This document shows, piece by piece, positions 1-17,495 of a stretch of 20,000 nucleotides of DNA (position 1 is its first letter; each line of letters starts with the position of its first letter). The notes under the pieces are model-generated. The model saw nothing but the letters and a program-made list of their open reading frames with translations, was not told the origin of the DNA and searched no databases. This stretch comes from an uncultured virus (IMG/VR IMGVR_UViG_3300042863_000355) (lineage: Duplodnaviria > Heunggongvirae > Uroviricota > Caudoviricetes). The stretch lies in IMG/VR virus record IMGVR_UViG_3300042863_000355; one strand, given 5' to 3'. A program made the position numbers and the translations under genes.

Positions 1-664
1 TACTATGGCAAATGCGCCAGTTGGTAAAACGAATACAGCAAAGCCTGGTAATCCTAATGTAACAACACCTCCGCCGGCGGCTACTAATATGGCAAGTGCG
101 CCAGTAAGCAAAACGAATACAGCAAAGCCTGGTAATCCTAATTTACCAGCACCAACCCCAAAGCGCACAGGTGGAAGAGCAGCAGGGGCACCATTAAGTC
201 AAACACCTAATGCTATTAGAAAACGTGCTGCAAGACTAAAAGAAGACGGTGAATTTCTTACTGAGCTTAAATCTATACAAGATTTTCCTGCATGGATTGA
301 TTCACAAATTCCTGGATTAGCAAGTGCAAAACAAGATCCGGCTATAAAAGCAAAGTTAGATCAAGCATTTTCTGCATTATCTGCCGCAAAAAATAATCCC
401 GATGCATTATCAAAGGCATTTGATAATTATGTGGCAATAGCTAATCAAGCAATGACTCAAAGTGGGCAACAAGATACACAACAAGGTACACACCAAGTTA
501 CATCATCTTCTGGGGTTCCTCCGTCGCAACAAGATAGAATGAATGCAAATTTAACTAAGTTAATCCCGCCAGATACTGCTAAACAATTACAACAACAAAT
601 ACGTAGAAAGGAATTGACCCCGGACGCATTGATACATTATCTTGAAAATCCAACCGGGTATTAA
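1..664 (+). CDS. Hypothetical protein, Pro/Ala/Gln-rich, probably 5'-truncated by the window edge
   Basis: The frame is open to the window start. The ATG at 5 is the first codon of a repeat unit (MANAPVGKTNTAKPGNPN / MASAPVSKTNTAKPGNPN), so it may be internal. Stop TAA at 662-664. Confidence 0.7.
   Translation, partial: TMANAPVGKTNTAKPGNPNVTTPPPAATNMASAPVSKTNTAKPGNPNLPAPTPKRTGGRAAGAPLSQTPNAIRKRAARLKEDGEFLTELKSIQDFPAWIDSQIPGLASAKQDPAIKAKLDQAFSALSAAKNNPDALSKAFDNYVAIANQAMTQSGQQDTQQGTHQVTSSSGVPPSQQDRMNANLTKLIPPDTAKQLQQQIRRKELTPDALIHYLENPTGY
5..142 (+). repeat. Intragenic direct repeat, 54-bp unit, 84-bp period
   Basis: 5-58 and 89-142 are near identical (atggcaaRtgcgccagt...aaaacgaatacagcaaagcctggtaatcctaat). 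Confidence 0.9.
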
Positions 665-666
665 TC

Positions 667-2232
667 ATGAATAATATGTTTAAAAATGGCGACGGTCAAT
701 CAATTACCCAACGTATCAATCAAACTGATGTTAAGACAACGTTATCTTGGCTTGAGCAGATGGTGGATCTTGATTTAATAAACAATTTGTCTAATGCTGA
801 TGAGCATAGTTTAGGAAAATTAGAGTTAACAATAGACTCTAATAAGATATCCCCTGATCAACTAATGGCTGAAATAACACAATGGTGTAATAGCCATGAA
901 CTGAAAGCAAGAGAATATGTAAAAAACTCAGGTTCGAGAATTTATTTTAGAACTCCTATTAACGGCAATCCTGCTAATGGGTACGTACAAACTGATTTTA
1001 GTTTCGTGACACCTAATGAAACTCACAATGAATCAGATATAAACTTTTTATCTAGATTACGTGATCGCATAGTTAACCAAGGTATGCTAAAATTAATTGA
1101 ATCAGATGAAGCCAAAATTAACGGTGGCAGAGCAAAAGGCATTGATCACATTGAAGATTTAGTATTTAGAAAAGGCACTAGCGGCATTAAAGATGCTTTG
1201 ACACATATTAAACATTTGATTAATGATACTGCAAGTAGTGCTACCGTAAAATGGGATGGCAAACCAGCCATTGTATTTGGTAGAGATGACGACGGTGAAT
1301 TTGTACTTACTGATATCAGTGGGTTCACTGCAACTGGGTATAATGGATTATTTACAAGTCCTGCTCATATTACTGAGAGGTTGTCTAATCGCGACAGTAA
1401 GTCAGCGACAATGGGAAAATTAGAGAATCGCGTAGAAGAACTTGGTCCAGTATACGAAATGCTATGGCCTATGTTAGAACAAGCTGTTCCTAGAAATTTC
1501 AAAGGTTTTGTACAAGGCGATTTACTTTATACTGAAACTCCAGATGAAGAATCTGGGGCATTAGTGTTTAAACCTAATACAATTGAATATAAGATTCCTG
1601 TTTCTTCTGATCTAGGTGAGGCAATTGCCAGTAGTCAAGTGGGTATTGCCATACATACTTACTATAAAGAACATCGTGCATCTAAGCAGCCTATTGGAAA
1701 AATGAAATTTAAATCAGTTCCAGGACTATTGTTAATTGAGCCAGTTAAACCAAAAGAAAATATTAAACCTACTGATTCAAGTTTACTTAGAGAATTACGT
1801 GAGTTATTAAAAGAAGGTGGAGCGTCTATTGATACATTGTTTAACCCAGCAGAACTTAGACAATTACAAATCAGTGACTTACCTCGGCTATGCGTAGATT
1901 ATATTAACAGCATAGTAAAAGATGAACTTGAGTCTAATTTTGATATTGATACATTACTCCCGCAGTTTGGAGAATGGTTAAAAGATCACGTAAGACCAAG
2001 AAAATATAACAATATAGTAGAATACTTACAAAGTCCACGTTCTAATATGATGGGTATTAGTGCAGCATTTGCGGCGTTTGTATTGATACACGAAATTAAG
2101 CTAGATTTACTACAACAGTTAGATCGTCAACACCCTGGGCACGAAGGCTGGGTAATTGCTACTCCTGGCGGACTTACTAAATTTGTTAATAGATTCGGGT
2201 TTACTAGAAATAACATTCAAAATAACGCATAA
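667..2232 (+). CDS. Fusion of a degenerate Pol-beta-like N-terminal domain and an ATP-dependent ligase/covalent nucleotidyltransferase-like domain (DUF6267-like phage family)
   Basis: TVKWDG (motif I, nt 1249-1260), VQGDLLY (III-like), EGWV (IV) and TKFV (V-like). The N-terminus resembles ORF 16195-17139. Confidence 0.6.
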   Translation: MNNMFKNGDGQSITQRINQTDVKTTLSWLEQMVDLDLINNLSNADEHSLGKLELTIDSNKISPDQLMAEITQWCNSHELKAREYVKNSGSRIYFRTPINGNPANGYVQTDFSFVTPNETHNESDINFLSRLRDRIVNQGMLKLIESDEAKINGGRAKGIDHIEDLVFRKGTSGIKDALTHIKHLINDTASSATVKWDGKPAIVFGRDDDGEFVLTDISGFTATGYNGLFTSPAHITERLSNRDSKSATMGKLENRVEELGPVYEMLWPMLEQAVPRNFKGFVQGDLLYTETPDEESGALVFKPNTIEYKIPVSSDLGEAIASSQVGIAIHTYYKEHRASKQPIGKMKFKSVPGLLLIEPVKPKENIKPTDSSLLRELRELLKEGGASIDTLFNPAELRQLQISDLPRLCVDYINSIVKDELESNFDIDTLLPQFGEWLKDHVRPRKYNNIVEYLQSPRSNMMGISAAFAAFVLIHEIKLDLLQQLDRQHPGHEGWVIATPGGLTKFVNRFGFTRNNIQNNA

Positions 2233-2265
2233 ATCTAAACCAAAACCACACTTTTTTATCTTCTA

Positions 2266-2273
2266 ACTAAATA
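2266..2273 (+). promoter_or_regulatory. Putative late promoter ACTAAATA
   Basis: Resembles the T4 late promoter TATAAATA. Intergenic, upstream of SD AGGAG (2301-2305). Confidence 0.65.
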
Positions 2274-2312
2274 CTAGTAGGACCTCAGAGTCCATCAACT
2301 AGGAGATTTAAA

Positions 2313-2753
2313 ATGGCATCAATTCCATTAGTATCAGGTGGTTCACAACCAGTATTCGCAACTGACACGCTTAACGGCCCACAGTTAGCAGCAAACGCAA
2401 CATACGCACCAACCGGTGTACCAGTTAACTTCATGGGTCCAAAACTGGACTTCTTCGGAGTAGACTTGGGTGCTGATCCTTCAGCACAAGCCGGCGTTAA
2501 CGGAGCAATCCAGACAATTTTACAAACTATTCAGCAAACAGCAACTATCGCAATTTATCAAGTTGCTGCTACTGCTAACGTTACAAACTTGTCATTAGCT
2601 GTATATCCAACAGCAGCTTACACAGCAGCTACATTGCAAGCAGCTATTCGCACATGTGGTTCGAACGTAGCTGGTACAGGATATGACGCTTCTGGTGCTA
2701 CAGTAACAGACGTAGGTTTCCGTTTAGCTTCATCAGCTACAACAGCATCCTAA
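2313..2753 (+). CDS. Putative virion structural protein, Ala/Thr-rich
   Basis: Has its own late-type promoter, strong SD and terminator. Low-charge Ala/Thr/Gly composition. Function is inferred. Confidence 0.6.
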   Translation: MASIPLVSGGSQPVFATDTLNGPQLAANATYAPTGVPVNFMGPKLDFFGVDLGADPSAQAGVNGAIQTILQTIQQTATIAIYQVAATANVTNLSLAVYPTAAYTAATLQAAIRTCGSNVAGTGYDASGATVTDVGFRLASSATTAS

Positions 2754-2778
2754 TTTTAAAGTTACCTTTAAAAACACT

Positions 2779-2801
2779 AAACCCGCTTTTGCGGGTTTTT
2801 T
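2779..2801 (+). terminator. Rho-independent terminator
   Basis: aaACCCGC-tttt-GCGGGT followed by TTTTT. Confidence 0.9.
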
Positions 2802-2820
2802 GTTGAGTATATTTTTCAAG

Positions 2821-2828
2821 ACTAAGTA
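2821..2828 (+). promoter_or_regulatory. Putative late promoter variant ACTAAGTA
   Basis: Lies between the terminator and SD AAGGAG (2863-2868). Confidence 0.5.
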
Positions 2829-2874
2829 ATATTGCTCGTGTTTTAAACACACACATTCACACAAGGAGAAAACT

Positions 2875-3126
2875 ATGAGCAAAACACCTTATGAGATTCG
2901 TCTCGAACTTTTAAAGCTGGCAAAAGATTCATTATATGAGCCAGTATTCCAAAAACGACAAAATCTTATGGACGAATTTATGTCCAAACGAGAAGTCTTT
3001 GTTGGAGTAGAAGGTCCTACTGAAGAACAGTTAGCATTACAGTTTCCGATTATGCCAGCTTTTCCCAGTACAGATATGATTATTGAAGAAGCTGAAAAAC
3101 TTAATCAGTTCGTAAGTAAGCCATAA
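2875..3126 (+). CDS. Small phage hypothetical protein (TPYEIRLELLKLAK...IIEEAEKLNQFVS type)
   Basis: Strong SD, flanked by terminators. The motif pattern is recalled from T4-like phage hypotheticals. Confidence 0.8.
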   Translation: MSKTPYEIRLELLKLAKDSLYEPVFQKRQNLMDEFMSKREVFVGVEGPTEEQLALQFPIMPAFPSTDMIIEEAEKLNQFVSKP

Positions 3127-3129
3127 TTA

Positions 3130-3151
3130 AAGGCCCCGCAAGGGGCTTTTT
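3130..3151 (+). terminator. Rho-independent terminator
   Basis: aagGCCCC-GCAA-GGGGC followed by TTTTT, with a GNRA loop. Confidence 0.9.
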
Positions 3152-3189
3152 GTTGACACATATTTTAATTAGTTAAATACACATATATT

Positions 3190-3435
3190 ATGATGGTCAA
3201 CAAAATAACAGAGTTAACAATTTTTGAAAGTCCAGATGGCGGACGTACTGTGTATGTGCGTAAACCTGGTGAAGAAACGCGGCATTTGCACTCTAAAAAT
3301 GAAATCCACGAAAAAGAAAAAGTTGAATACGAACGTTGGTTAAACATTTTTAATGCTAGACGTAATAACACAGCACTTAATGATGTATGTTTGCAAGCTG
3401 AAATATTGTATGAACTATCTAAGAATCCAGAATGA
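3190..3435 (+). CDS. Phage hypothetical protein (IFESPDGGRTVYVR motif)
   Basis: Preceded by GTTAAATA (3172-3179). ATGA overlap with the next gene. Confidence 0.75.
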   Translation: MMVNKITELTIFESPDGGRTVYVRKPGEETRHLHSKNEIHEKEKVEYERWLNIFNARRNNTALNDVCLQAEILYELSKNPE

Positions 3436-3845
3436 GATTCTCTTGCAAAACTTTATTTGACATTACTGCCACAGGTGTTACTGGACATTACAAATCTTCT
3501 CGTGTTCCGTTTAAAGATTTAGCAGATGCTGAAATAACAAATGAAATAGCTTGGAATAGATCTAGAAATCAACAACGTAACTGGGAAACATTGACACAAT
3601 TGATAGGGTTACGTACTCAAATTGCTAAACTAGATCGTCCTGAAGAAAATTCGCAAGTATGGAGTTTTGAATTTGAAGTAGATGCTCCTTATGTGTTTGG
3701 TCCTGAGGAAAACCCTACTGAAATGCTACTATCTGATTGTAATGGTGTTCCTATGTTAATAAATCTTGAAAATAAAGTAGATTTAGAACCCTTTTTGATA
3801 GTAAATGGGATTAATCAAAATATATGGTTTAACTTATTATACTAA
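3432..3845 (+). CDS. Phage hypothetical protein (TLFDITATG / RNQQRNWET motifs)
   Basis: 137-aa ORF coupled to the upstream gene by an ATGA overlap. Confidence 0.75.
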   Translation: MRFSCKTLFDITATGVTGHYKSSRVPFKDLADAEITNEIAWNRSRNQQRNWETLTQLIGLRTQIAKLDRPEENSQVWSFEFEVDAPYVFGPEENPTEMLLSDCNGVPMLINLENKVDLEPFLIVNGINQNIWFNLLY

Positions 3846-3848
3846 ATA
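3841..3848 (+). promoter_or_regulatory. Putative late promoter ACTAAATA
   Basis: Overlaps the upstream stop codon. SD GAGG follows before ATG 3867. Confidence 0.6.
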
Positions 3849-3866
3849 CACTAACGAGGAAACATT

Positions 3867-4130
3867 ATGGTTGAGCCCACTGATATTGAGAAAAAAAGTT
3901 TAGAAGCGCATGTTGAACTATGTGCTGAGCGTTATAATGCCCTTGAAAATAAAATAGCCACAGTAGATAGTAAAATTACCCATCTGTGCGCTGAGGTAAC
4001 TGATGTAAAAGACACTTTGAAAAAAATGTCTGAAAAAAACAATGACCGTTTAATCACATGGGGTATTGGAATTATTGCTACTTTAGTTGCAATAGTTGGA
4101 TACTTTATATCACACTACATTATAAAATGA
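3867..4130 (+). CDS. Coiled-coil protein with a C-terminal transmembrane helix (XhlA/holin-like architecture)
   Basis: Heptad-like helical region followed by hydrophobic LITWGIGIIATLVAIVGYFI. Confidence 0.6.
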   Translation: MVEPTDIEKKSLEAHVELCAERYNALENKIATVDSKITHLCAEVTDVKDTLKKMSEKNNDRLITWGIGIIATLVAIVGYFISHYIIK

Positions 4131-4624
4131 CAACAGAATTTGAAATGGACAAAGCCTTTAGGAAAGAATTCCCAAAGATATTAACTAATCTTATTTTTCC
4201 AAATAAGGATGGTAGCTTTGAAGTTTTTGGAAGATATGTAATAAAGAAAGAAAACGCGGTATGCCGGGTTTATTGTACTGATACAGATATAGGTGTTTTT
4301 ACCAGTACAAAAACAGCACTAAGCTGGTGTATAGCTACAAAATTTGCTAATTATAATTTAGCAAGAGATATATTAATTTTGGATAATAAATTAAGATCTT
4401 TAACTAACGACATTAACACAAGAGCTAACGTAGCGGATCGTAGTAAAAATTCGTTATTTCGTGAAACTGTGGAAACAAAGTTAGAAACTAAAATTATCCA
4501 TAAGAAACAGGTTGAGCAACAATTAACCAAATGCGTCAATTACGCTAAATACTATCAACAAAAAGGATTTAATAATGAAAATGTTCGAACTGGCCGCGAT
4601 CAAGCCATCAAAACAAGCCGCTAA
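4127..4624 (+). CDS. Hypothetical protein (start revised to 4127)
   Basis: ATG 4127 forms an ATGA overlap with the upstream stop. The track start at 4058 lies inside the upstream gene. Confidence 0.7.
   Translation: MTTEFEMDKAFRKEFPKILTNLIFPNKDGSFEVFGRYVIKKENAVCRVYCTDTDIGVFTSTKTALSWCIATKFANYNLARDILILDNKLRSLTNDINTRANVADRSKNSLFRETVETKLETKIIHKKQVEQQLTKCVNYAKYYQQKGFNNENVRTGRDQAIKTSR
4544..4551 (+). promoter_or_regulatory. Putative late promoter GCTAAATA inside the upstream CDS
   Basis: Followed by SD AAGGA (4563-4567) and ATG 4575. Confidence 0.55.
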
Positions 4625-5549
4625 GGTATACGAGAGTTATTTCGGAGACAGCATTAATGTTGACGTAATTTCCCCAAAACAAGCTCGTACAATGCTTAAT
4701 AAAGTACAAAAGCTAGTAACTGAGCATCGTTCCACTCCGGCTTTTCATCATAGCGAAAAAAATCCAACTTATTTAAAGTTGATGATGTTAGAGCGTGTGT
4801 TAAAGGCTAAAGTAAAAGAAACTGCTACTATAGGTGTTGGCGATGCTGCTGGCGCTGATAAAAATACAGCACAAAACGCTGCTCAAAATGCAGAAGCTAA
4901 GCCTAACGCCAATGTCGTTGCAGGAGATGCTGCTGCTAAACAAAAAATGCAACAGCAAGTTAATACTATTTCTGATCCTAAACTTAAATCAGCTATGCAA
5001 AAAGCCTCGCAAGGCCAAGCAATGAATACTGATGACCAAAAATTAGTTGCTCAAGCTGCACTACAAACAGAAAGCAAAGCAATGCGTCGTCAGTTATATC
5101 GTGTATTGCGCGAATCAGAAGTTCAGCAAGCCCAAGTTGTATTAGCTGCTAAAGCTATGACCGATGATATTCAAACAATGTTAGAAGAAGTATCCAGTAT
5201 GCAATTTAAAGATTTGCCAGCATTAGCCGACGAAATGAAAAATCAAATCGGTGTTGACCAAGCTATGCAATTCAATACTGATGTAACTGCGGTACTTGCT
5301 GGCTTAGTACAGAATCTACAGGCAGCTAAACAACAAATGGATCAAGCATTGGGTGTAGTTACTGGACAACAAGCAGCTCCAATTCCTGGGCAAGAACCTG
5401 AACTAGGTGCTGAACCTGAACTAGGTGCTGAACCTGGTATGGACGCTGAGCCCGATATGGACGCTGAGCCTAGTTTAGATGCTGAACCTGAGTTAGGTGC
5501 TGAAGAACCTGGTATGGATGGCGCCGGCCTTGGTCGCGCTAAACGTTAA
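4575..5549 (+). CDS. Putative prohead core/scaffold-like or internal head protein
   Basis: Helical and Ala/Gln-rich, with an acidic Pro-rich repeat tail, a basic C-terminus (LGRAKR) and a late-type promoter. Function is inferred. Confidence 0.5.
   Translation: MKMFELAAIKPSKQAAKVYESYFGDSINVDVISPKQARTMLNKVQKLVTEHRSTPAFHHSEKNPTYLKLMMLERVLKAKVKETATIGVGDAAGADKNTAQNAAQNAEAKPNANVVAGDAAAKQKMQQQVNTISDPKLKSAMQKASQGQAMNTDDQKLVAQAALQTESKAMRRQLYRVLRESEVQQAQVVLAAKAMTDDIQTMLEEVSSMQFKDLPALADEMKNQIGVDQAMQFNTDVTAVLAGLVQNLQAAKQQMDQALGVVTGQQAAPIPGQEPELGAEPELGAEPGMDAEPDMDAEPSLDAEPELGAEEPGMDGAGLGRAKR
5394..5519 (+). repeat. 18-bp degenerate tandem repeat, about 7 units, encoding EPELGA/EPGMDA
   Basis: gaacctgaactaggtgct x2, then gaacctggtatggacgct, gagcccgatatggacgct, gagcctagtttagatgct, gaacctgagttaggtgct and a partial unit. 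Confidence 0.9.
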
Positions 5550-5917
5550 TGTTAATTTTTGAAGTAGAAAATCCTGAACCAGTAGATACCGGCAAGTTAA
5601 TGGCCCTTGTACAATTTTTGTCAGGCCGTGCCGAGGATACTGGTTCAAAAAAACAAATATCTACCAAAGCATTTATTGAACTGGCACAAAGTATCGGGGT
5701 TAATGTTACCGCAGATATTAGCGGTCCTAATAGCATAGCTGAATTGATTGCCAGAGAACCACTAAACAAAATTTTACAACCTATCGACCCAACAACTCCA
5801 GACATAATTAAATATGCAGGAAATGATGAATCAGGACAGGATCAAATGGATCCAGCTGACTCTGAACAAGTAGTAGCAGCCAACGCTAAGTCTGCTATGA
5901 AAGGATTTGGCAAATAA
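5549..5917 (+). CDS. Hypothetical acidic protein, possibly head-associated
   Basis: TAATG overlap with the upstream gene. N-terminus MLIFEV. Confidence 0.7.
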   Translation: MLIFEVENPEPVDTGKLMALVQFLSGRAEDTGSKKQISTKAFIELAQSIGVNVTADISGPNSIAELIAREPLNKILQPIDPTTPDIIKYAGNDESGQDQMDPADSEQVVAANAKSAMKGFGK

Positions 5918-5931
5918 ATCTATCAAATCGG

Positions 5932-5960
5932 TTGACAATTAACTTAAAACTAAGTACAAT
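5932..5960 (+). promoter_or_regulatory. Sigma70-type promoter
   Basis: TTGACA (5932-5937), 17 bp, TACAAT (5955-5960). Overlaps ACTAAGTA (5949-5956). Confidence 0.8.
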
Positions 5961-5992
5961 CAATTTACGTAACTTAACTAACGGAGTTCAAA

Positions 5993-6391
5993 ATGAAAAA
6001 ACTTATTTTAACATTACTAGTGGCAACATCATTATTACACTCGGCTCCATCATATTCATGGAATCGCGGTGGTAACGGGTACCAAAATGGGTACAACGGA
6101 TATCGCGGCGGTTACAATAACGGATATCGCGGCGGCTATAATAATAATTGGATTGCTCCGGCTATCGGTGGGTTAATTATAGGTGGTGTAGTTGGTGCTC
6201 TTGCACAACCATACTATGCCCCGGCTCCGATATATAATCAAGCTCCTCCAGTATACTATCCTCCTGTCCAAGCTCCTCCAGTATACTATCCTCCTGTCCA
6301 AGCTCCATCGGCTGCACCTGCAGGATACCGTCAGGAACAAATGTTAGATGTAAATTGTAACTGTTATGTTACTGTATTAGTACCAAATTAA
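5993..6391 (+). CDS. Secreted/membrane protein with Gly-Tyr-Asn and Pro-rich repeats
   Basis: Signal peptide MKKLILTLLVATSLL..., a glycine-zipper-like helix WIAPAIGGLIIGGVVGALA, and a C-terminal CNC. SD GGAG. Confidence 0.8.
   Translation: MKKLILTLLVATSLLHSAPSYSWNRGGNGYQNGYNGYRGGYNNGYRGGYNNNWIAPAIGGLIIGGVVGALAQPYYAPAPIYNQAPPVYYPPVQAPPVYYPPVQAPSAAPAGYRQEQMLDVNCNCYVTVLVPN
6095..6142 (+). repeat. 24-bp tandem repeat x2 (NGYRGGYN)
   Basis: aacggatatcgcggcggttacaat / aacggatatcgcggcggctataat. Confidence 0.85.
6239..6306 (+). repeat. Perfect 30-bp tandem duplication plus partial unit (QAPPVYYPPV)
   Basis: caagctcctccagtatactatcctcctgtc x2, then caagctcc. Confidence 0.95.
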
Positions 6392-6412
6392 TGAATTTGA
6401 GCGTGACAATAC

Positions 6413-6441
6413 TTTGAATTTGATTCAAGTATAAGTATAAT
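6413..6441 (+). promoter_or_regulatory. Probable promoter: sigma70-like, overlapping late-like TATAAGTA
   Basis: TTGAAT (6414-6419), 16 bp, TATAAT (6436-6441). TATAAGTA at 6430-6437. Confidence 0.5.
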
Positions 6442-6467
6442 AGTAATACTACAAAAGGAGATTTATC

Positions 6468-6584
6468 ATGTTTGAAACATTATTATGGCTTGCTGTAGGA
6501 GCATTTATTGGGTGGAATTTCCCACAACCAGATTTTGCTAAAAGCATTCAAGCAAAACTAACTGCATTAATCAAAGGCAAATAA
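6468..6584 (+). CDS. 38-aa small membrane protein, not in the ORF track
   Basis: SD AAGGAG (6455-6460). Translates as MFETLLWLAVGAFIGWNFPQPDFAKSIQAKLTALIKGK*. Fills the gap before iscU. Confidence 0.85.
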   Translation: MFETLLWLAVGAFIGWNFPQPDFAKSIQAKLTALIKGK

Positions 6585-6593
6585 AAAACTAAC

Positions 6594-7034
6594 ATGGCTT
6601 ATAGCGAAAAAGTTTTAGATCATTATGAGAATCCTCGCAATGTAGGGTCCTTTACTAAAGACGAAGATAACGTTGGCACTGGTATGGTGGGTGCACCTGC
6701 TTGTGGTGACGTGATGAAGTTACAGATAAAGGTCAAAAATGGCATTATCACGGATGCAAAATTTAAAACATATGGTTGCGGATCAGCAATCGCAAGCTCC
6801 TCTTTGGTCACTGAGTGGGTCAAAGGAAAATCTCTTGAAGATGCTGGACGAATTAGAAATACAGACATTGCCCAAGAATTGGCACTTCCACCCGTTAAAA
6901 TCCATTGTTCAATTCTCGCAGAAGATGCGATCAAAGCAGCCGTAGCAGATTATATAAGCAAACATGATACACAAAATACTGAAGTGGCCGGATCCATCAC
7001 TACTAAAAACATGCCAACCGTGGGACTTCAGTAA
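6594..7034 (+). CDS. iscU: Fe-S cluster scaffold protein IscU
   Basis: MAYSEKVLDHYENPRNVG, GAPACGDVM, FKTYGCGSAIASSS and LPPVKIHCS. Confidence 0.97.
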   Translation: MAYSEKVLDHYENPRNVGSFTKDEDNVGTGMVGAPACGDVMKLQIKVKNGIITDAKFKTYGCGSAIASSSLVTEWVKGKSLEDAGRIRNTDIAQELALPPVKIHCSILAEDAIKAAVADYISKHDTQNTEVAGSITTKNMPTVGLQ

Positions 7035-7455
7035 CCCTCCTGTTGAAAACATAAGTCAAGATCTTCTTGACACTATGAATAGTCAGATGGCGCTCGGACT
7101 TGCTGCTAATCAAATAGGTATTTTATACCGCGTTATTGCCATGAATATTCAAAATGGCGTCTTTGCTGGCCAACAATTGGTGTTAGTAAATCCAGAAATA
7201 CATAAATTATCAGGAGAATTTTGGGAACATAGAGAAGGATGTCTAAGTTTTCCCAGAATAGATCTTACTATCACTAGACCCAAATATGTATATGCACGTT
7301 GGAGAGATATCACTGGCGGCGAACATAGTACCGTATTCAGTGAGATTGATGCTAAATGTTTCCTACATGAAATAGATCATCTAGATGGCAAAGTGTTTAA
7401 AGATTACGTAAGTGATTTAAAATTTATGCTAGCAGCTAAAAAGGCAAAAAAATAA
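6964..7455 (+). CDS. def: Peptide deformylase
   Basis: Motifs (A)LGLAANQ, EGCLS and HEIDH. Confidence 0.95.
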   Translation: MIHKILKWPDPSLLKTCQPWDFSNPPVENISQDLLDTMNSQMALGLAANQIGILYRVIAMNIQNGVFAGQQLVLVNPEIHKLSGEFWEHREGCLSFPRIDLTITRPKYVYARWRDITGGEHSTVFSEIDAKCFLHEIDHLDGKVFKDYVSDLKFMLAAKKAKK

Positions 7456-7637
7456 TGGATTTGAAAGAAAAAAAAGCATTGGATACTAGATTTCAGTTTT
7501 TAGTAAACGAAATTTGTAATGTATCTCCTGCAACTCGCAGTGAATTTCCCATGAAAGCATACCATGCTAAGACTCGTTTAGCGACACTTAGGGAAGAATT
7601 GTCCAAGGAAATTTCTGAACTAATGGAAAAATTATAA
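7455..7637 (+). CDS. 60-aa hypothetical protein
   Basis: TAATG overlaps on both sides, exactly filling the def-iscA gap. Confidence 0.65.
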   Translation: MDLKEKKALDTRFQFLVNEICNVSPATRSEFPMKAYHAKTRLATLREELSKEISELMEKL

Positions 7638-7966
7638 TGATAACAATAACAGAAACAGCAGCAAAGAAAATAATTAGCAACATTGCTAAACGAGGTAGTG
7701 GGCAAGGCATTAAAGTTGGTGTTAAAACAACCGGATGTAGTGGACTTGCGTATGTTCTTGAGTATGTAGATCAAGTTCCATCTTCGTGGGACTGGGTAGA
7801 GTACGATATCGGAGAAGGAGCTAAGGTTTGGGTTACTCAGAAAGATTTAGCTTATATTGACGGACTTGAGATTGATTATGTTCGTAAAGGACTTAACGAA
7901 GGATTTGATTTTATTAATCCTAAAGAAGCAGCCCGTTGCGGTTGCGGAGAGTCATTTACCATTTAA
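7637..7966 (+). CDS. iscA: A-type Fe-S carrier IscA
   Basis: MITITETAA, GVKTTGCSGLAY and CGCGESF. Confidence 0.95.
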   Translation: MITITETAAKKIISNIAKRGSGQGIKVGVKTTGCSGLAYVLEYVDQVPSSWDWVEYDIGEGAKVWVTQKDLAYIDGLEIDYVRKGLNEGFDFINPKEAARCGCGESFTI

Positions 7967-7967
7967 C

Positions 7968-7996
7968 TTGATATTTACGTAATACTAAGTTAAACT
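7968..7996 (+). promoter_or_regulatory. Sigma70-type promoter, probably giving a leaderless mRNA
   Basis: TTGATA (7968-7973), 17 bp, TAAACT (7991-7996). ATG at 8003 with no SD. Confidence 0.6.
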
Positions 7997-8002
7997 AGTG
8001 TA

Positions 8003-13570: not shown

Positions 13571-14221
13571 ATGTTAGAAACAATATGTGATATTATGATA
13601 GATGCTTACAAGCGTAATTGGATTACAAGTCGGGATGGCAATGTTAGTATTCGCCATCATGGGAGAGACCATTTTTATGTTACTCCAACTGGAGTTCGTA
13701 AACAAACTCTTCAACCTGATCAGTTTAAGAAAATTAAAATTAACCAGCATATTCAAAGTGGAGTTGGTACTGCGAAGTTTTCGCATAGTTGGGAAGATAT
13801 GCCGTATACTGATATAAGTACCAACTTGAAACCTAGTGGCGAAATACCCATGCACTTTGGTTTACAGAAAAATATTGATACTGAAGTGCGTGTAATTATG
13901 CACTTTCATCCCACCTATACTACAGCAGCAATGTACGCAGGTATTGACCTACCGAATCTACTCAATGAATTTCCAGAACTAAGTCGGTATACCTCAGTTG
14001 GTCCAACCGTTGGTGTATTACCTCCCATCACCCAAGACTTGGCTGACGCCTGTATAAAGAATATTGGATTCAATGATGATACAGGTGAGATTAAATATAA
14101 TATAATTGGTATGGATAGACACGGCGTTATTGCTGTTGACACAAGCCCATGGCGAGCATATGAGCACATTGAACGACTAGAGCACATTTGTAAGATAGTA
14201 CTTGCATCAAGAAAATATTAA
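13571..14221 (+). CDS. Class II aldolase/adducin family protein
   Basis: DGNVSIR, TPTG, KPSGE..MH, HFHP and RHG metal/catalytic motifs. SD AAGGA. Confidence 0.9.
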   Translation: MLETICDIMIDAYKRNWITSRDGNVSIRHHGRDHFYVTPTGVRKQTLQPDQFKKIKINQHIQSGVGTAKFSHSWEDMPYTDISTNLKPSGEIPMHFGLQKNIDTEVRVIMHFHPTYTTAAMYAGIDLPNLLNEFPELSRYTSVGPTVGVLPPITQDLADACIKNIGFNDDTGEIKYNIIGMDRHGVIAVDTSPWRAYEHIERLEHICKIVLASRKY

Positions 14222-15330
14222 TGAGTAAAGAACAATATAATTTAAGCACCAAGACAGACTATCTTAGTCGTAAAATGTTTCTAGATCCCGCTGGTCCAGT
14301 TACTATACAACGGTTTGAAGAAGTAAAGTATAATAAGTTAACAAAATTTGATGCTGAAGCTAGAGGATTCTTTTGGGTTCCAGAAGAAATTTCCCTAACA
14401 AAAGATGCAGGCGATTTTAAAGACGCTAGTGATACTGTTAAACATATCTTCACTAGTAACTTGTTGCGTCAAACAGCCTTAGATAGTGTACAAGGCCGCG
14501 GCCCCACACAAGTGTTTACACCTGTATGTTCTATTCCCGAACTTGAAGCATTGATGTATAACTGGGGATTCTTTGAAACAAATATCCATAGTCGTTCGTA
14601 TAGTCATATTATTCGCAATATCTATAATGTGCCAAAGGATGTGTTTAACACAATCCATGATACACAAGAAATTATTAGTATGGCGAGTAGTATTGGAAAA
14701 TACTATGACTATCTACATAGATTAAATTGTCGCAAAGAGCTAAATGATAATGGGTATGCAGTTGATGAGCGTGAACATATCAAGGCAATTTGGCTAGCAC
14801 TACATGCTAGCTACGCTCTTGAAGCATTCCGTTTCATGGTATCATTTGCCACAAGTTTAGCAATGGTTGAGAATCGTATCTTTATTGGCAATGGTAATAT
14901 TATCGGGTTAATTTTACAAGACGAAATCTTACACAAAGAGTGGACAGCTTGGATTATCAATCAGGTTGTTAAGGAAGATTCCAGATTTGCCAGTATCAAG
15001 GGTGAATGCGAAGCCGAAGTATATCAAATATACCTAGATGTTATTCGTGAAGAAAAAGAATGGGCGGATTACTTGTTCAACAAGGGTCCAGTCATTGGAC
15101 TTAACGCTAATATTCTTAAAGAATTTGTTGACTTTACTGCGGTAGCAGCACTAAAGGAAATTGGTATCAAGTATCAAGGATCAGCACCAAGAACTACACC
15201 AATCCCATGGTTTAACAAACATGTTAATGTAAGCAATAAACAATCGGCATTACAAGAAACTGAAAGTACAAACTATGTAATTGGTGTTATGAGTGATACA
15301 CTAGACTACGATGAGTTGCCTAGTTTATAA
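14221..15330 (+). CDS. nrdB: Ribonucleotide reductase class Ia beta subunit
   Basis: FFWVPEEI, QTALDSVQGR, ETNIHSRSY, LEAFRF, DEILH and QETE...Y. Confidence 0.97.
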   Translation: MSKEQYNLSTKTDYLSRKMFLDPAGPVTIQRFEEVKYNKLTKFDAEARGFFWVPEEISLTKDAGDFKDASDTVKHIFTSNLLRQTALDSVQGRGPTQVFTPVCSIPELEALMYNWGFFETNIHSRSYSHIIRNIYNVPKDVFNTIHDTQEIISMASSIGKYYDYLHRLNCRKELNDNGYAVDEREHIKAIWLALHASYALEAFRFMVSFATSLAMVENRIFIGNGNIIGLILQDEILHKEWTAWIINQVVKEDSRFASIKGECEAEVYQIYLDVIREEKEWADYLFNKGPVIGLNANILKEFVDFTAVAALKEIGIKYQGSAPRTTPIPWFNKHVNVSNKQSALQETESTNYVIGVMSDTLDYDELPSL

Positions 15331-15334
15331 TTAA

Positions 15335-16198
15335 TTAGAAAGTCTGTTGAACTAGTTTCAACGACTTTTCTTTTTCAGCACCTTTCTGTGTGCCTATTTC
15401 ACCAGACTTAACTGAAATCATAGACGCAAACAAACCTTTAATCCGTTCTCTACTGCGCGGATTTTTAACTCTACTATTAATCGCTGAAACTAATTCAACA
15501 AATTTAAAATCAAAACTCGTCATTCCCAACAACGAATGGACATGAAAGAAATCTGTAGAAGTCCATATTATTTCCCTACTAACTTGTTTATATGTTCCCG
15601 GCTCGTATTGTACTCGTCTTAACTGTAATTCATTGCTGGATAAATTAAATTCGTACTCTTGGTCTTGACCTAATACACCTGGGTCAGAAATATCAAGTCT
15701 ATCAAATAGTTTATCAGCGGAATTTTCTAATATAGCAACTTTTACCAATCCCAGTACTAGGCCTTGAATTGATGCAGGCATATTTAAAAATTTTCTTTTA
15801 AAATTAGCTTCGGCATAATCCCTAGCAATGATGCTATCAATCTGTGCCGAATATCCTAATTCTTTATCATAGTATCTTATAGTTACAATCTCACCTGAGT
15901 TGTATGTACGACGACCTAAATATTTAGGATTGCTGAAGGGTACAATGACATCTTCTGGTTGGTTGTGGAAAAATTCAACTAATGATTTTTTAAGAGTTGT
16001 CTTAGTAAGCACGGTAGGAATAGTTACAATTAAATCTATATCACCAAATGTCTGTTTATCCTTATCAGCGGCATAACTGCCAGTGTAATATAATATATTA
16101 TTTTCACAAAACTGATGAATAAGTTTTGAATAACCTCCGACAAATTGGACATAGTCCTCACGACTTCTGACTCTTTCTGCTCCTGCTACTCCGCTCAT
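15335..16198 (-). CDS. Pol-beta/PolX-like nucleotidyltransferase (NTase B)
   Basis: YTGSY...TFGDIDLIV with a third Asp in AQIDSI. ATGA-coupled to the upstream NTase. Confidence 0.75.
   Translation of the reverse strand: MSGVAGAERVRSREDYVQFVGGYSKLIHQFCENNILYYTGSYAADKDKQTFGDIDLIVTIPTVLTKTTLKKSLVEFFHNQPEDVIVPFSNPKYLGRRTYNSGEIVTIRYYDKELGYSAQIDSIIARDYAEANFKRKFLNMPASIQGLVLGLVKVAILENSADKLFDRLDISDPGVLGQDQEYEFNLSSNELQLRRVQYEPGTYKQVSREIIWTSTDFFHVHSLLGMTSFDFKFVELVSAINSRVKNPRSRERIKGLFASMISVKSGEIGTQKGAEKEKSLKLVQQTF
15339..15375 (+). terminator. Putative intrinsic terminator for nrdB, embedded in the antisense CDS
   Basis: AAAGTC-t-GTTGAA-ctagt-TTCAAC-GACTTT followed by TCTTTTT. Confidence 0.55.
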
Positions 16199-17139
16199 GA
16201 CAACACCTTTAATTTAGAATTTTCTGGTAAAAACTTTCCTGATAATACTAATCTATCTTTACGACCAATCCATTCCTCTTGTAAATTATCAGGAATGTCA
16301 GCTCTAGTAGAATCTAAAATCTTAAAGTATGTGTCAAGCATCTTACTATACTTTTCAGAATCTAATTGTTTAGCCAGCGTTTCACCAAGAACATAATAGT
16401 CTGCGACAATATCCGTAGTAAGCGTAGTGCCTAATCGTTCATTAAGAATAGACAATGCTTGTACTGGATTTCGTGCTAACCATTCTTTAGTAGTTTTATC
16501 TCTAACGCCAATGCCATGACTAAATGACAAGTCAGCAACTTGAAACGCAGATAACATTAGCTGTGTGCGATGTAGGCCTTTTACATTAGAATCATCTGGG
16601 TACGCCGCTGAATAGTAACTAAAGCGCAGCCAGTCTAGGTCGCCAATCATCCAATCAATCTGAACACATTCACCTGTGTCATTACCATTCAAGTCTTTTT
16701 GTGGATAATATCCAAAAATGCTGCTGTCTGTTACTTTCTTTTCATCACAATGTATTGTAGGAGCATGTAGGTTAATATAACGTACAAGATTTAGCAAAAA
16801 TGCCTTCATACACAATTGATCATCCGATGCTGTTCTTGATCGGCTCTTTAATAAATTAAATGTTTCCTCAAACTCAGTAACGGTAAGATTCCACGATTTT
16901 AATTCATTTGCTAAATTATCAGTATGTACATCAAAAATATAATGATTATTGATGCCTAAATCAATATCACCCGACACCGGCTTCTTGTTAACAGAGCCTA
17001 GAGTTTCAAAATAATGCATATTAAAGATTACTTGATGTGGAAATAGATTCTCCAACTCGGCAAAGTATGCCTTTAGTGTAGGAAGGATATTTTCTCTAAG
17101 AATTGGTGCTGTTTTATCAGCAAATACGTTACCGCCCAT
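16195..17139 (-). CDS. Pol-beta/PolX-like nucleotidyltransferase (NTase A)
   Basis: TLGSVNKKPVSGDIDLGI with a third Asp in VQIDWM. SD GGAG at 17145-17148 (minus strand). Confidence 0.78.
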   Translation of the reverse strand: MGGNVFADKTAPILRENILPTLKAYFAELENLFPHQVIFNMHYFETLGSVNKKPVSGDIDLGINNHYIFDVHTDNLANELKSWNLTVTEFEETFNLLKSRSRTASDDQLCMKAFLLNLVRYINLHAPTIHCDEKKVTDSSIFGYYPQKDLNGNDTGECVQIDWMIGDLDWLRFSYYSAAYPDDSNVKGLHRTQLMLSAFQVADLSFSHGIGVRDKTTKEWLARNPVQALSILNERLGTTLTTDIVADYYVLGETLAKQLDSEKYSKMLDTYFKILDSTRADIPDNLQEEWIGRKDRLVLSGKFLPENSKLKVLS

Positions 17140-17167
17140 GATTACTCCGATTGATTATAATACAAAT

Positions 17168-17196
17168 AGTATAGTTTAGAATGAATTAAATGTCAA
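17168..17196 (-). promoter_or_regulatory. Near-consensus sigma70 promoter of the NTase operon
   Basis: On the minus strand: TTGACA (17196-17191), 17 bp, TATACT (17173-17168). Confidence 0.85.
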
Positions 17197-17212
17197 GTGC
17201 TACTAGTAATGT

Positions 17213-17220
17213 ACTAAATA
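17213..17220 (+). promoter_or_regulatory. Putative late promoter ACTAAATA
   Basis: Upstream of SD AAGGA (17243-17247) of the glutaredoxin gene. Confidence 0.6.
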
Positions 17221-17252
17221 TTGTGCTAAAATACAACGTTATAAGGAATAAT

Positions 17253-17495
17253 ATGTTAACAGTTTATACCAAGGACGATTGCCCGTTTTGTGATCGCGCC
17301 AAGGCATTATTAGAAAGTAAAGGTATTGAATATACTACAGTAAATGTAGGTATTCGTACAGAAGCTCGTGACTATTTGGTTGAGCAAGGATTGCGTAGTG
17401 TACCACAGATTTTCAATGGTACAACATTAATTCAGGGCGGGTATCAAGGATTGGCCAGTAAGCCAGAAGAATTTTGGACAGAATTAAAAGGATAA
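17253..17495 (+). CDS. grx: Glutaredoxin (start revised to 17253)
   Basis: MLTVYTKDDCPFC...RSVPQIF...GGY. SD just upstream of ATG 17253. Confidence 0.93.
   Translation: MLTVYTKDDCPFCDRAKALLESKGIEYTTVNVGIRTEARDYLVEQGLRSVPQIFNGTTLIQGGYQGLASKPEEFWTELKG

Follow-up and report, generated by a model that had tools for sequence, protein, structure and literature searches.

The question raised by the locus described here is why a phage would retain a polymerase-like domain that has lost its catalytic motifs. The locus lies in a stretch of 20,000 nucleotides from an uncultured virus of the Caudoviricetes (IMG/VR record IMGVR_UViG_3300042863_000355), the whole of which is referred to as the window. The domain forms the amino terminus of the protein encoded by open reading frame (ORF) 667, where it precedes a ligase-like domain of the Pfam family DUF6267. 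Two free nucleotidyltransferases (NTases), NTase A (ORF 17139) and NTase B, are encoded on the opposite strand. An original prediction, made from the sequence, had proposed that the domain is a catalytically degenerate paralog of NTase A, that the ancestral protein was an NTase-ligase fusion whose NTase decayed, and that the free pair may complement the loss.

From this study, ORF 667 is the short form of a fusion protein in which a domain resembling a miniature DNA polymerase of family X (PolX) precedes the ligase-like domain. The explanation that we favor, and hold as a whole to be reasonably probable, is that the shortened domain, or stub, is a conserved pseudoenzyme, that nucleotides are added in trans by the A/B pair, and that sealing depends on K195 of the ligase-like domain. 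New here are the apparently dead, thumb-less short form, its single origin, the selection on the stub and the insertion of the cassette that encodes the free pair.

Organization of ORF 667

The gene and its parts are as follows.

667..2232, + strand: whole gene, short form, in which a pseudo-PolX stub precedes a DUF6267 ligase-like domain (521 aa, P0001; from the ORF list, translation and Pfam)
667..1014, + strand: stub, aa 1–116, a predicted Pol-beta-type palm without the catalytic set and without the thumb (from the model and homology to intact domains)
790..825, + strand: degenerate GS...DxD segment SNADEHSLGKLE, aa 42–53, aligned with the long-form LGSTGLKPTSGDLD, with K51 and E53 in place of two metal-binding Asp
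985..996, + strand: VQTD, aa 107–110, the third carboxylate, kept in the window; the thumb deletion (~117 residues) lies just downstream, after F113
1036..1146, + strand: leader helix (aa 124–137) and disordered linker, with an invariant K-L-I-E at aa 142–145 (nt 1090–1101)
1138..2229, + strand: ligase-like DUF6267 domain, aa ~158–521, with the KWDG of motif I at nt 1249–1260 (K195)

P0001 matches DUF6267 (PF19782) from approximately residue 160 onward with a score of 123.6 bits (E = 1.7e-35), above the curated cut-off of 27 bits, and also matches phrog_455, whose function is unassigned in PHROG. Of the 7986 candidates scored in a homolog search with P0001, 3761 reached E ≤ 1e-3. The structure model (mean predicted local distance difference test score, pLDDT = 92.1) consists of three parts, namely the stub, a helix with a linker, and the large domain from residue 160. 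Within the stub (pLDDT = 85–97), a helix spans residues 19–33 and strands span residues 51–57, 85–87, 91–97 and 106–114. After the palm come a single helix and the disordered linker, with no thumb. Residues 137–148 (pLDDT < 50) are the sole disordered stretch of the model and hold K142-L-I-E145, which is invariant in the aligned short forms. A leader helix and an L-x-E motif are also present ahead of stand-alone DUF6267 proteins, as judged from their consensus.

Loss of the catalytic motifs and the thumb

Among the best 121 cluster representatives, 15 are short (505–530 aa) and 106 are long (625–652 aa). The long forms start with GGNVF, LGSTGxKxTSGDLDxAVD and GYVQTDF and continue for ~117 further residues, whereas the short forms read NNMF, SNADEHSLGKLELTID and GYVQTDF at the same positions and the ~117 residues are gone. 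The missing region corresponds to alignment columns 136–252, which are present in all long forms and absent from all short forms. The alignment of short and long forms is unambiguous, with a mean identity of 52% over aa 8–113 (aa 1–113 are encoded by nt 667–1005). The motif G[ST]..GDxD occurs in 106 of 106 long clusters and in none of the 15 short ones. In the MAFFT alignment the "LG" of LGS is deleted, S42 lies opposite the serine, and the two aspartates have become K51 and E53; K51, L52 and E53 are invariant across the 14 aligned short forms. The third carboxylate is D110 of VQTD in the window, but 4 of the 15 short-form clusters read VQTN or IQTN, with asparagine in its place. Residues T14, R16, Q19, D21, T25, W28, E30, F94, T96, P97, G100 and Q108 are conserved in both the short and the long forms. 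Both the loss of GS/DxD and the missing region after VQxD had been noted in the original prediction, and both are borne out.

The relationship between the stub and NTase A becomes apparent through the long forms. A profile built from long forms only matched the NTase A family over 213 columns with 28% identity (hhalign, Prob = 99.55, E = 2.3e-23), including the region that the short form lacks, and a mixed profile of short and long forms matched it at E = 5.3e-16. The parallels between ORF 667 and ORF 17139 that had been seen by eye were reproduced column for column by profile alignment: NNMF..TQRI..VKTTL pairs with GGNVF..TAPI..ILPTL, SNADEHSLGKLELTID with LGSVNKKPVSGDIDLGIN, and SRIYFRTPINGNPANGYVQTDF with SSIFGYYPQKDLNGNDTGECVQIDW. 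As judged from these alignments, the stub domain and NTase A are paralogs, a relationship that is established transitively.

Comparison of the stub model to known structures with VIA-align gave matches to Pol beta (PDB: 4rpx_A, Z = 8.3, root mean square deviation (RMSD) 2.7, 100 aa, model range 6–130), Pol mu (Z = 7.4), TdT (Z = 7.2) and the Pol X of African swine fever virus (ASFV; Z = 6.4, 95 residues). Other NTase palms (Trf4, CutA, TUTases) scored Z = 6.2–6.8, and the preference for family X is slight. Of the hallmarks of that family, the palm fold is present in the stub, and the GS with three carboxylates and the C-terminal thumb are not. Since the glycine of GS, two of the three catalytic aspartates and the thumb have been lost, the stub is predicted to be no longer capable of nucleotidyl transfer. 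Searches of PDB sequences with three family profiles gave no relevant match, and matches in the ESM Atlas, to NTP_transf_2, DNA_pol_B_palm and RNA_ligase, had low shares or scores and are no more than leads.

A motif-dead domain is also found in a second, independent fusion lineage (P0250, loci L177–L180, match 3001–4809), where the thumb region has been kept. Its motifs read TKFVF for GGNVF, SNID for GDxD and VQVN for VQTD.

Origin of the short form and selection on the stub

A maximum-likelihood tree of the ligase-like half was calculated from 12 short forms, 27 long forms and 9 more distant outgroup rows, hand-picked from those retrieved. The short forms make up one clade (support 100/100) with a long stem, placed inside the long forms as sister to the long form P0017. 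Nesting of the clade within intact fusions means that its ancestor was itself intact and that the loss took place a single time.

Within the short forms, the ratio of nonsynonymous to synonymous substitution rates (dN/dS, Nei-Gojobori) of the stub was 0.03–0.2, with dS saturated in most pairs. The least saturated pairs gave a dN/dS of 0.072 at a dS of 0.33, and 0.046 at a dS of 0.71. In all 15 pairs for which both values were available, dN was lower in the stub than in the ligase domain; six pairs involving the locus L011 have no value for the ligase part on account of an ambiguous base. The ratio of stub to ligase-half divergence was 0.58–0.81 in the short forms as compared to 0.86–1.75 for the same region in the long forms. 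With dN/dS in this range and a stub that is better conserved than the ligase half, strong purifying selection is indicated and neutrality is excluded. Taken together with the invariant K51 and E53, this selection identifies the stub as a pseudoenzyme domain with a retained function and not as debris. Thus, the NTase-ligase fusion proposed as the ancestor in the original prediction stands, while "decayed" does not describe the present state of its NTase half, given the substitution rates of the two domains.

Insertion of the NTase A/B cassette

The cassette comprises the following features.

16195..17139, − strand: NTase A, a predicted free and intact mini-PolX-like enzyme (314 aa, P0002; from motifs and model), paralog of the fused domain
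15335..16198, − strand: NTase B, a putative free NTase of the Pol-beta superfamily (287 aa, P0003), overlapping A by 4 nt
15331..17189, no strand: insertion site of the cassette, with A and B antisense between nrdB (14221–15330) and the glutaredoxin gene (17190–17495)
17168..17196, − strand: sigma-70-like promoter match TTGACA-17-TATACT (11/12) just upstream of NTase A, a consensus match only

ORF 667 and the long form are positional orthologs: the downstream genes o2313, o3190, o3432, o3867, o4058 and o4575 recur in 42–63 of 69 long-form loci, and NrdB is 81–94% identical between these phages. When whole records were searched with NTase A and B profiles, both proteins were found in the window and in all four other short-form records of sufficient length to judge (G002, G003, G004 and G023), which makes five of five. 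Neither was found in any of 18 long-form records, one of them 100% complete, where matches to the A profile were only weak and lay inside the fusion ORF itself. The loss of GS/DxD thus tracks the presence of the cassette, in favor of the original prediction, as a single event. A further record (G042) carries A and B, with a fusion gene that runs off the contig.

All four long-form genomes checked share the contiguous gene order nrdB, grx, o17497, PAAR, o18075 and o19067. This order is broken exactly between nrdB and grx by the cassette in the window and G002, and the cassette also adjoins nrdB in G003, G004, G023 and G042. The NTase A copies of the short-form genomes form one clade (support 96). 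The cassette is a single insertion in the lineage whose fused enzyme appears to have lost its chemistry. In genomes that contain A and B and no DUF6267, referred to as type-2, the cassette is found elsewhere, far from nrdB. The window's syntenic neighbor o3432 is missing from the type-2 genomes; as a result, no loss series can be drawn from them.

Properties of the free enzymes

Residues G48, S49, D58, D60 and D162 of NTase A are invariant in 44 homologs, so that GS, DxD and the third aspartate are all in place. Structural comparison of the NTase A model (pLDDT = 93.3) placed ASFV Pol X first (PDB: 5hr9_A, Z = 9.2, RMSD 3.4, 164/176 aa), followed by Pol beta (Z = 9.0–9.1), TdT (Z = 8.9), Pol lambda (Z = 8.6) and Tth PolX (Z = 8.5) over model residues ~1–250. 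Leishmania Pol beta and Pol mu were matched as well, and the family X structures below ASFV Pol X range from Z = 7.4 to 9.1 over both palm and thumb. The top 9 structural rows all belong to family X, while palm-only NTases reach Z ≤ 7.0. A Foldseek search with the model returned Pol beta in all of the top 50 rows (E from 7e-6). With its palm and thumb architecture, NTase A is predicted to be a minimal family-X-like enzyme. The similarity on which the original prediction depended is therefore found both between profiles, via the long forms, and between structures, for the stub with Pol beta and for NTase A with ASFV Pol X.

In NTase B, G40, D53, D55 and D121 are invariant in 25 homologs and S41 is conserved in at least 90%. 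Neither NTase A nor NTase B has a significant Pfam family, and the weak matches of NTase B are to DNA_pol_B_palm (E = 0.012) and NTP_transf_2 (E = 0.019). NTase A and NTase B do not match each other by BLASTP (E = 0.84). Comparison of NTase B to NTase A and to the fusions with hhalign was likewise not significant (E = 0.027, 0.0035 and 0.0024, probabilities 2–12%); for this reason, NTase B is assigned to the Pol-beta superfamily by its motifs and weak Pfam matches only.

In 76 of 80 NTase A loci, the next gene downstream is that of NTase B. In the 157-kb relative G002 (C1:30098–31900; locus L175 3102–4901), A and B occupy one open frame of 650 aa, a natural fusion that suggests joint action. 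The adjacency, the 4-nt overlap and this single frame suggest that NTase A and NTase B are coupled. Sites resembling the sigma-70-like promoter upstream of A are as numerous in the region as expected from shuffled sequence. The promoter match overlaps the annotated start of the glutaredoxin ORF.

A search for relatives of NTase A returned 1746 homolog clusters. Several homologs (P0156, P0170, P0180, P0192, P0198, P0223, P0234 and P0236) are 439–465 aa in length instead of the usual ~315 aa and are extended or fused. The cultured Flavobacterium phage vB_FspM_immuto_2-6A (NC_055915.1, 160 kb; L176 5001–9235), called immuto below, encodes an NTase A homolog, gp089, with 43.5% identity. Next comes a 907-aa protein with the annotation NadR/NMNAT, residues 1–284 of which are an NTase B homolog (39% identity, E = 1e-56), and after this protein an NT5C nucleotidase. 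No DUF6267 was found in the immuto genome.

The ligase-like domain

Across 84 diverse DUF6267 homologs (to ~30% identity), E163, D164, K195, D197, G198, G205, G280 and D285 are invariant, as are P303, Y308, G317, H330, K478, E493, G494 and F512, and at least 90% of the homologs keep K505, V507 and R509. Motif I, KxDG with its lysine, is present and its K195, D197 and G198 never vary. The invariance of K195, D197, G198, D285, E493 and G494 is, at the level of sequence, the pattern expected of a covalent nucleotidyltransferase. It is plausible to place G280, D285, E493, G494, K505, V507 and R509 in motifs III, IIIa, IV and V.

With VIA-align, the large domain matched NgrRnl (PDB: 5cot_A, Z = 7.7, 181 aa), TbREL1 (Z = 7.4), Pmar-Lig (Z = 6.8), T4 Rnl1 (Z = 6.6), Trl1 (Z = 6.6), T4 Rnl2 (Z = 6.5) and T4 DNA ligase (Z = 6.2). 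At these moderate Z values, aa 158–521 show the fold of an adenylyltransferase domain, with a long helical insert (aa ~371–488) between the putative motifs III and IV. A Foldseek search with the whole P0001 model gave no row at E ≤ 1e-3, the best being Trl1 (E = 3e-3), and the DUF6267 family has no sequence-level match to any solved ligase. As modeled, DUF6267 combines the adenylyltransferase fold with the KxDG lysine of ATP-dependent ligases.

In 37 proteins scanned for fusion partners of DUF6267, HIGH-type cytidylyltransferase-like NTases (8/37) and Acb1-type 2H phosphoesterases (4/37) were found along with NT5C, ParB_N, DUF5661 and many further fused regions without a Pfam family. By analogy, these partners bring to mind the healing and sealing of RNA ends no less than the repair of DNA. 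The fusions are 750–1300 aa in length (P0261, P0263, P0268, P0269, P0272, P0282, P0298, P0332, P0335, P0337 and P0346). The long-form relative P0373, from a record cut at 424 aa, contains a probable intein at ~336–418 (Intein_splicing, E = 3.4e-8, just under the cut-off) whose first residue is a cysteine immediately after the KWDG of the ligase-like domain.

Proposed explanation and alternatives

From the homology, fold, motif loss, single origin, insertion site and selection, we infer a loss of activity, complementation in trans and a function in repair. The ancestor was an intact fusion of a kind that is widespread, in which a miniature family-X-like NTase, with a Pol-beta-like palm and a thumb, is joined to a DUF6267 enzyme. 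In one sub-lineage, the fused domain lost the glycine of GS and two of the three catalytic aspartates, and its thumb was deleted. The same sub-lineage acquired the antisense cassette of two intact free enzymes horizontally, by insertion between nrdB and grx. The stub of ~116 residues may serve a non-catalytic purpose, for instance by docking a partner or by placing the ligase domain on the end of a nucleic acid. Most probably, the free A/B pair would now add the nucleotides in trans. Sealing by the K195-dependent ligase-like domain would then complete a fill-and-seal repair of broken nucleic acid, either DNA or RNA. Complementation by the free pair is plausible but has a single evolutionary event behind it.

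A number of results weigh against this explanation. Direct similarity between the stub and NTase A is undetectable, either by BLASTP of P0001 against P0002 (best E = 3.0, not significant) or by hhalign of a profile of 14 short forms against the NTase A family (no N-terminal match), and the paralogy is therefore transitive, via the long forms. The Pfam PolX models (DNA_pol_B_palm/thumb), applied member by member, recognized 0 of 44 NTase A proteins and 1 of 27 long forms, the latter with E = 0.0042, below the cut-off. The Z values of 6–8 for the ligase half are middling by the scale of the tool, with RNA and DNA ligases effectively tied. Since the co-occurrence of short form and cassette is one evolutionary event, it carries no statistical weight and does not fix the order of gain and loss. 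The long-form records that gave no A or B are mostly fragments (7–58% complete), and nrdB is present in no more than 12 of the 18. No intermediate, whether an intact fusion with the cassette or a short form without it, was seen among the records. In the P0250 lineage no A or B was found, in records that are 2–20% complete and therefore offer no informative replicate of the correlation between motif loss and cassette. Finally, the A/B pair is present without any DUF6267 in G026 (99% complete), G028 (90% complete) and the cultured phage immuto, an absence assessed alongside a positive control. In these three complete or near-complete genomes, the pair must therefore have a function of its own that does not depend on the ligase-like enzyme.

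The alternative that survives best is one of coincidence or hitch-hiking, in which the fused domain died independently of the cassette, for example by a change of substrate that left a binding module, and the cassette has a separate role. The three genomes with A/B and no DUF6267 agree with it, as do the fusion of B in immuto to a HIGH-type NTase-like protein instead, the single event behind the co-occurrence, and the second motif-dead lineage with no A/B in the fragments at hand. However, it leaves to chance that NTase A is paralogous specifically to the domain that died, and that the cassette is present in five of five short-form records and none of 18 long-form records of closely related phages, which are otherwise syntenic and whose NrdB proteins are 81–94% identical. 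We consider coincidence to be possible but unlikely.

A further proposal, made more tentatively still, is that the dead palm is an adaptor that recruits the free A/B enzymes to the ligase, the fused domain having been reduced to a docking or end-binding module once the phage had gained the free pair. If so, this lineage would represent a natural domain swap, the free mini-PolX pairs and the DUF6267 enzyme would belong to one repair machine, and the case would demonstrate how an enzyme fusion becomes a multi-subunit complex held together by a pseudoenzyme.

It is improbable that the stub is a carrier or pro-piece for capsid loading that is cut from the ligase domain at the L-x-E in the linker, its conservation being a reflection of packaging. 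While the invariant K142-L-I-E145 in the sole disordered stretch of the model, and the leader helix with L-x-E that precedes stand-alone DUF6267 proteins, would be accounted for, the window protein and NTase A are without the MxLLKE-type leader of many relatives, and the near-consensus sigma-70-like promoter before A speaks weakly against late, structural expression. Hardly credible at all is a stub that is either a neutral remnant en route to deletion or still catalytic by a non-canonical mechanism: the deleted thumb and the asparagine at the third carboxylate in 4 of 15 short clusters are what loss of function predicts, but a remnant is at odds with a dN/dS of 0.03–0.2 and with a stub more conserved than the ligase half across a clade that is ~35% divergent, and the absence of the glycine of GS, two aspartates and the whole thumb makes templated or untemplated transfer very unlikely.

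Comparison with known systems

In bacteria, the polymerase and ligase modules of end repair are either fused, as in LigD, or encoded by separate genes, as in split non-homologous end joining (NHEJ) systems, depending on the genome. The LigD polymerase has a primase-type (archaeo-eukaryotic primase, AEP) fold and not a Pol-beta-like one, and to our knowledge a dead remnant domain is no defining feature of LigD or split NHEJ.

ASFV Pol X (PDB: 5hr9), a working repair polymerase, resembles NTase A in being a minimal family X enzyme with a palm and a C-terminal subdomain only. The identity is ~11%, however, and NTase A has an inserted helical segment (~aa 65–125) and a helical C-terminal extension of ~65 residues. 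The OB-less, ATP-dependent RNA ligases NgrRnl of Naegleria (5cot), TbREL1 of T. brucei (1xdn), T4 Rnl2 (2hvq) and fungal Trl1 (9r3w, 9qw7) share the adenylyltransferase fold and KxDG with aa 157–521 of the window protein. They differ from it in the long helical insert, and DNA ligases are within ~1.5 Z units. Like Trl1, some DUF6267 proteins (the 4 of 37 noted above with an Acb1-type domain) are fused to a 2H phosphoesterase.

The PolX-ligase fusion PgVPolX of the giant virus Phaeocystis globosa virus 16T, as described in its published account, has been biochemically demonstrated to fill and seal base-excision-repair intermediates (PMC5537341). It shares the domain logic of the intact long form, for which it may serve as a functional model. 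It belongs to a virus of a eukaryote, its polymerase core is active and is also a lyase, and the homologs of its ligase half are NAD+-dependent DNA ligases and not DUF6267 (PMC5537341). The palm of the window protein, by contrast, is predicted to be dead and is without a thumb.

Aquatic phages very commonly carry genes of the DUF6267 and mini-PolX-like families, for which 3761 and 1746 homolog clusters, respectively, were found, with relatives in T4-like cyanophages. In the cassette-bearing lineage, the fused copy appears to have lost its chemistry and kept its fold. This lineage offers comparative evidence, independent of gene adjacency, for a functional equivalence of the fused polymerase-like domain and the free pair. 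It also provides a clean case of a pseudoenzyme whose ancestor is known, whose origin is a dated event and whose selective constraint can be measured. A full-text literature search found DUF6267 in no paper, and among the papers listed by searches that combined Pol X with phage and ligase terms, none was a phage study of this family.

Source phage and neighboring genes

The window is a gene-dense phage fragment with a G+C content of 34–41%. Its relatives in IMG/VR are records of 25–344 kb. CheckV places a 157-kb fragment at 45% completeness and a 344-kb record, which has terminal repeats, at 100%; from these values and the one complete relative, the phage probably belongs to a group of jumbo phages of ~350 kb. 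A DNA search of deposited phages with positions 1–8000 of the window gave matches confined to NifU-like genes. Besides ORF 667 and the NTases, the window encodes NifU-, IscA- and peptide-deformylase-like proteins, an exonuclease, a tail-fibre-like protein, NrdA, a class II aldolase, NrdB, glutaredoxin and a PAAR protein. The aldolase gene, of the class II aldolase/adducin type, is located between nrdA and nrdB (13571–14221, + strand). Upstream of ORF 667, a low-complexity ORF rich in Pro, Ala and Gln (2–664, + strand) stops 2 nt before the fusion gene begins. This ORF recurs in 6 of 11 short-form loci, with 38–100% identity over the aligned parts, as compared to only 1 of 69 long-form loci.

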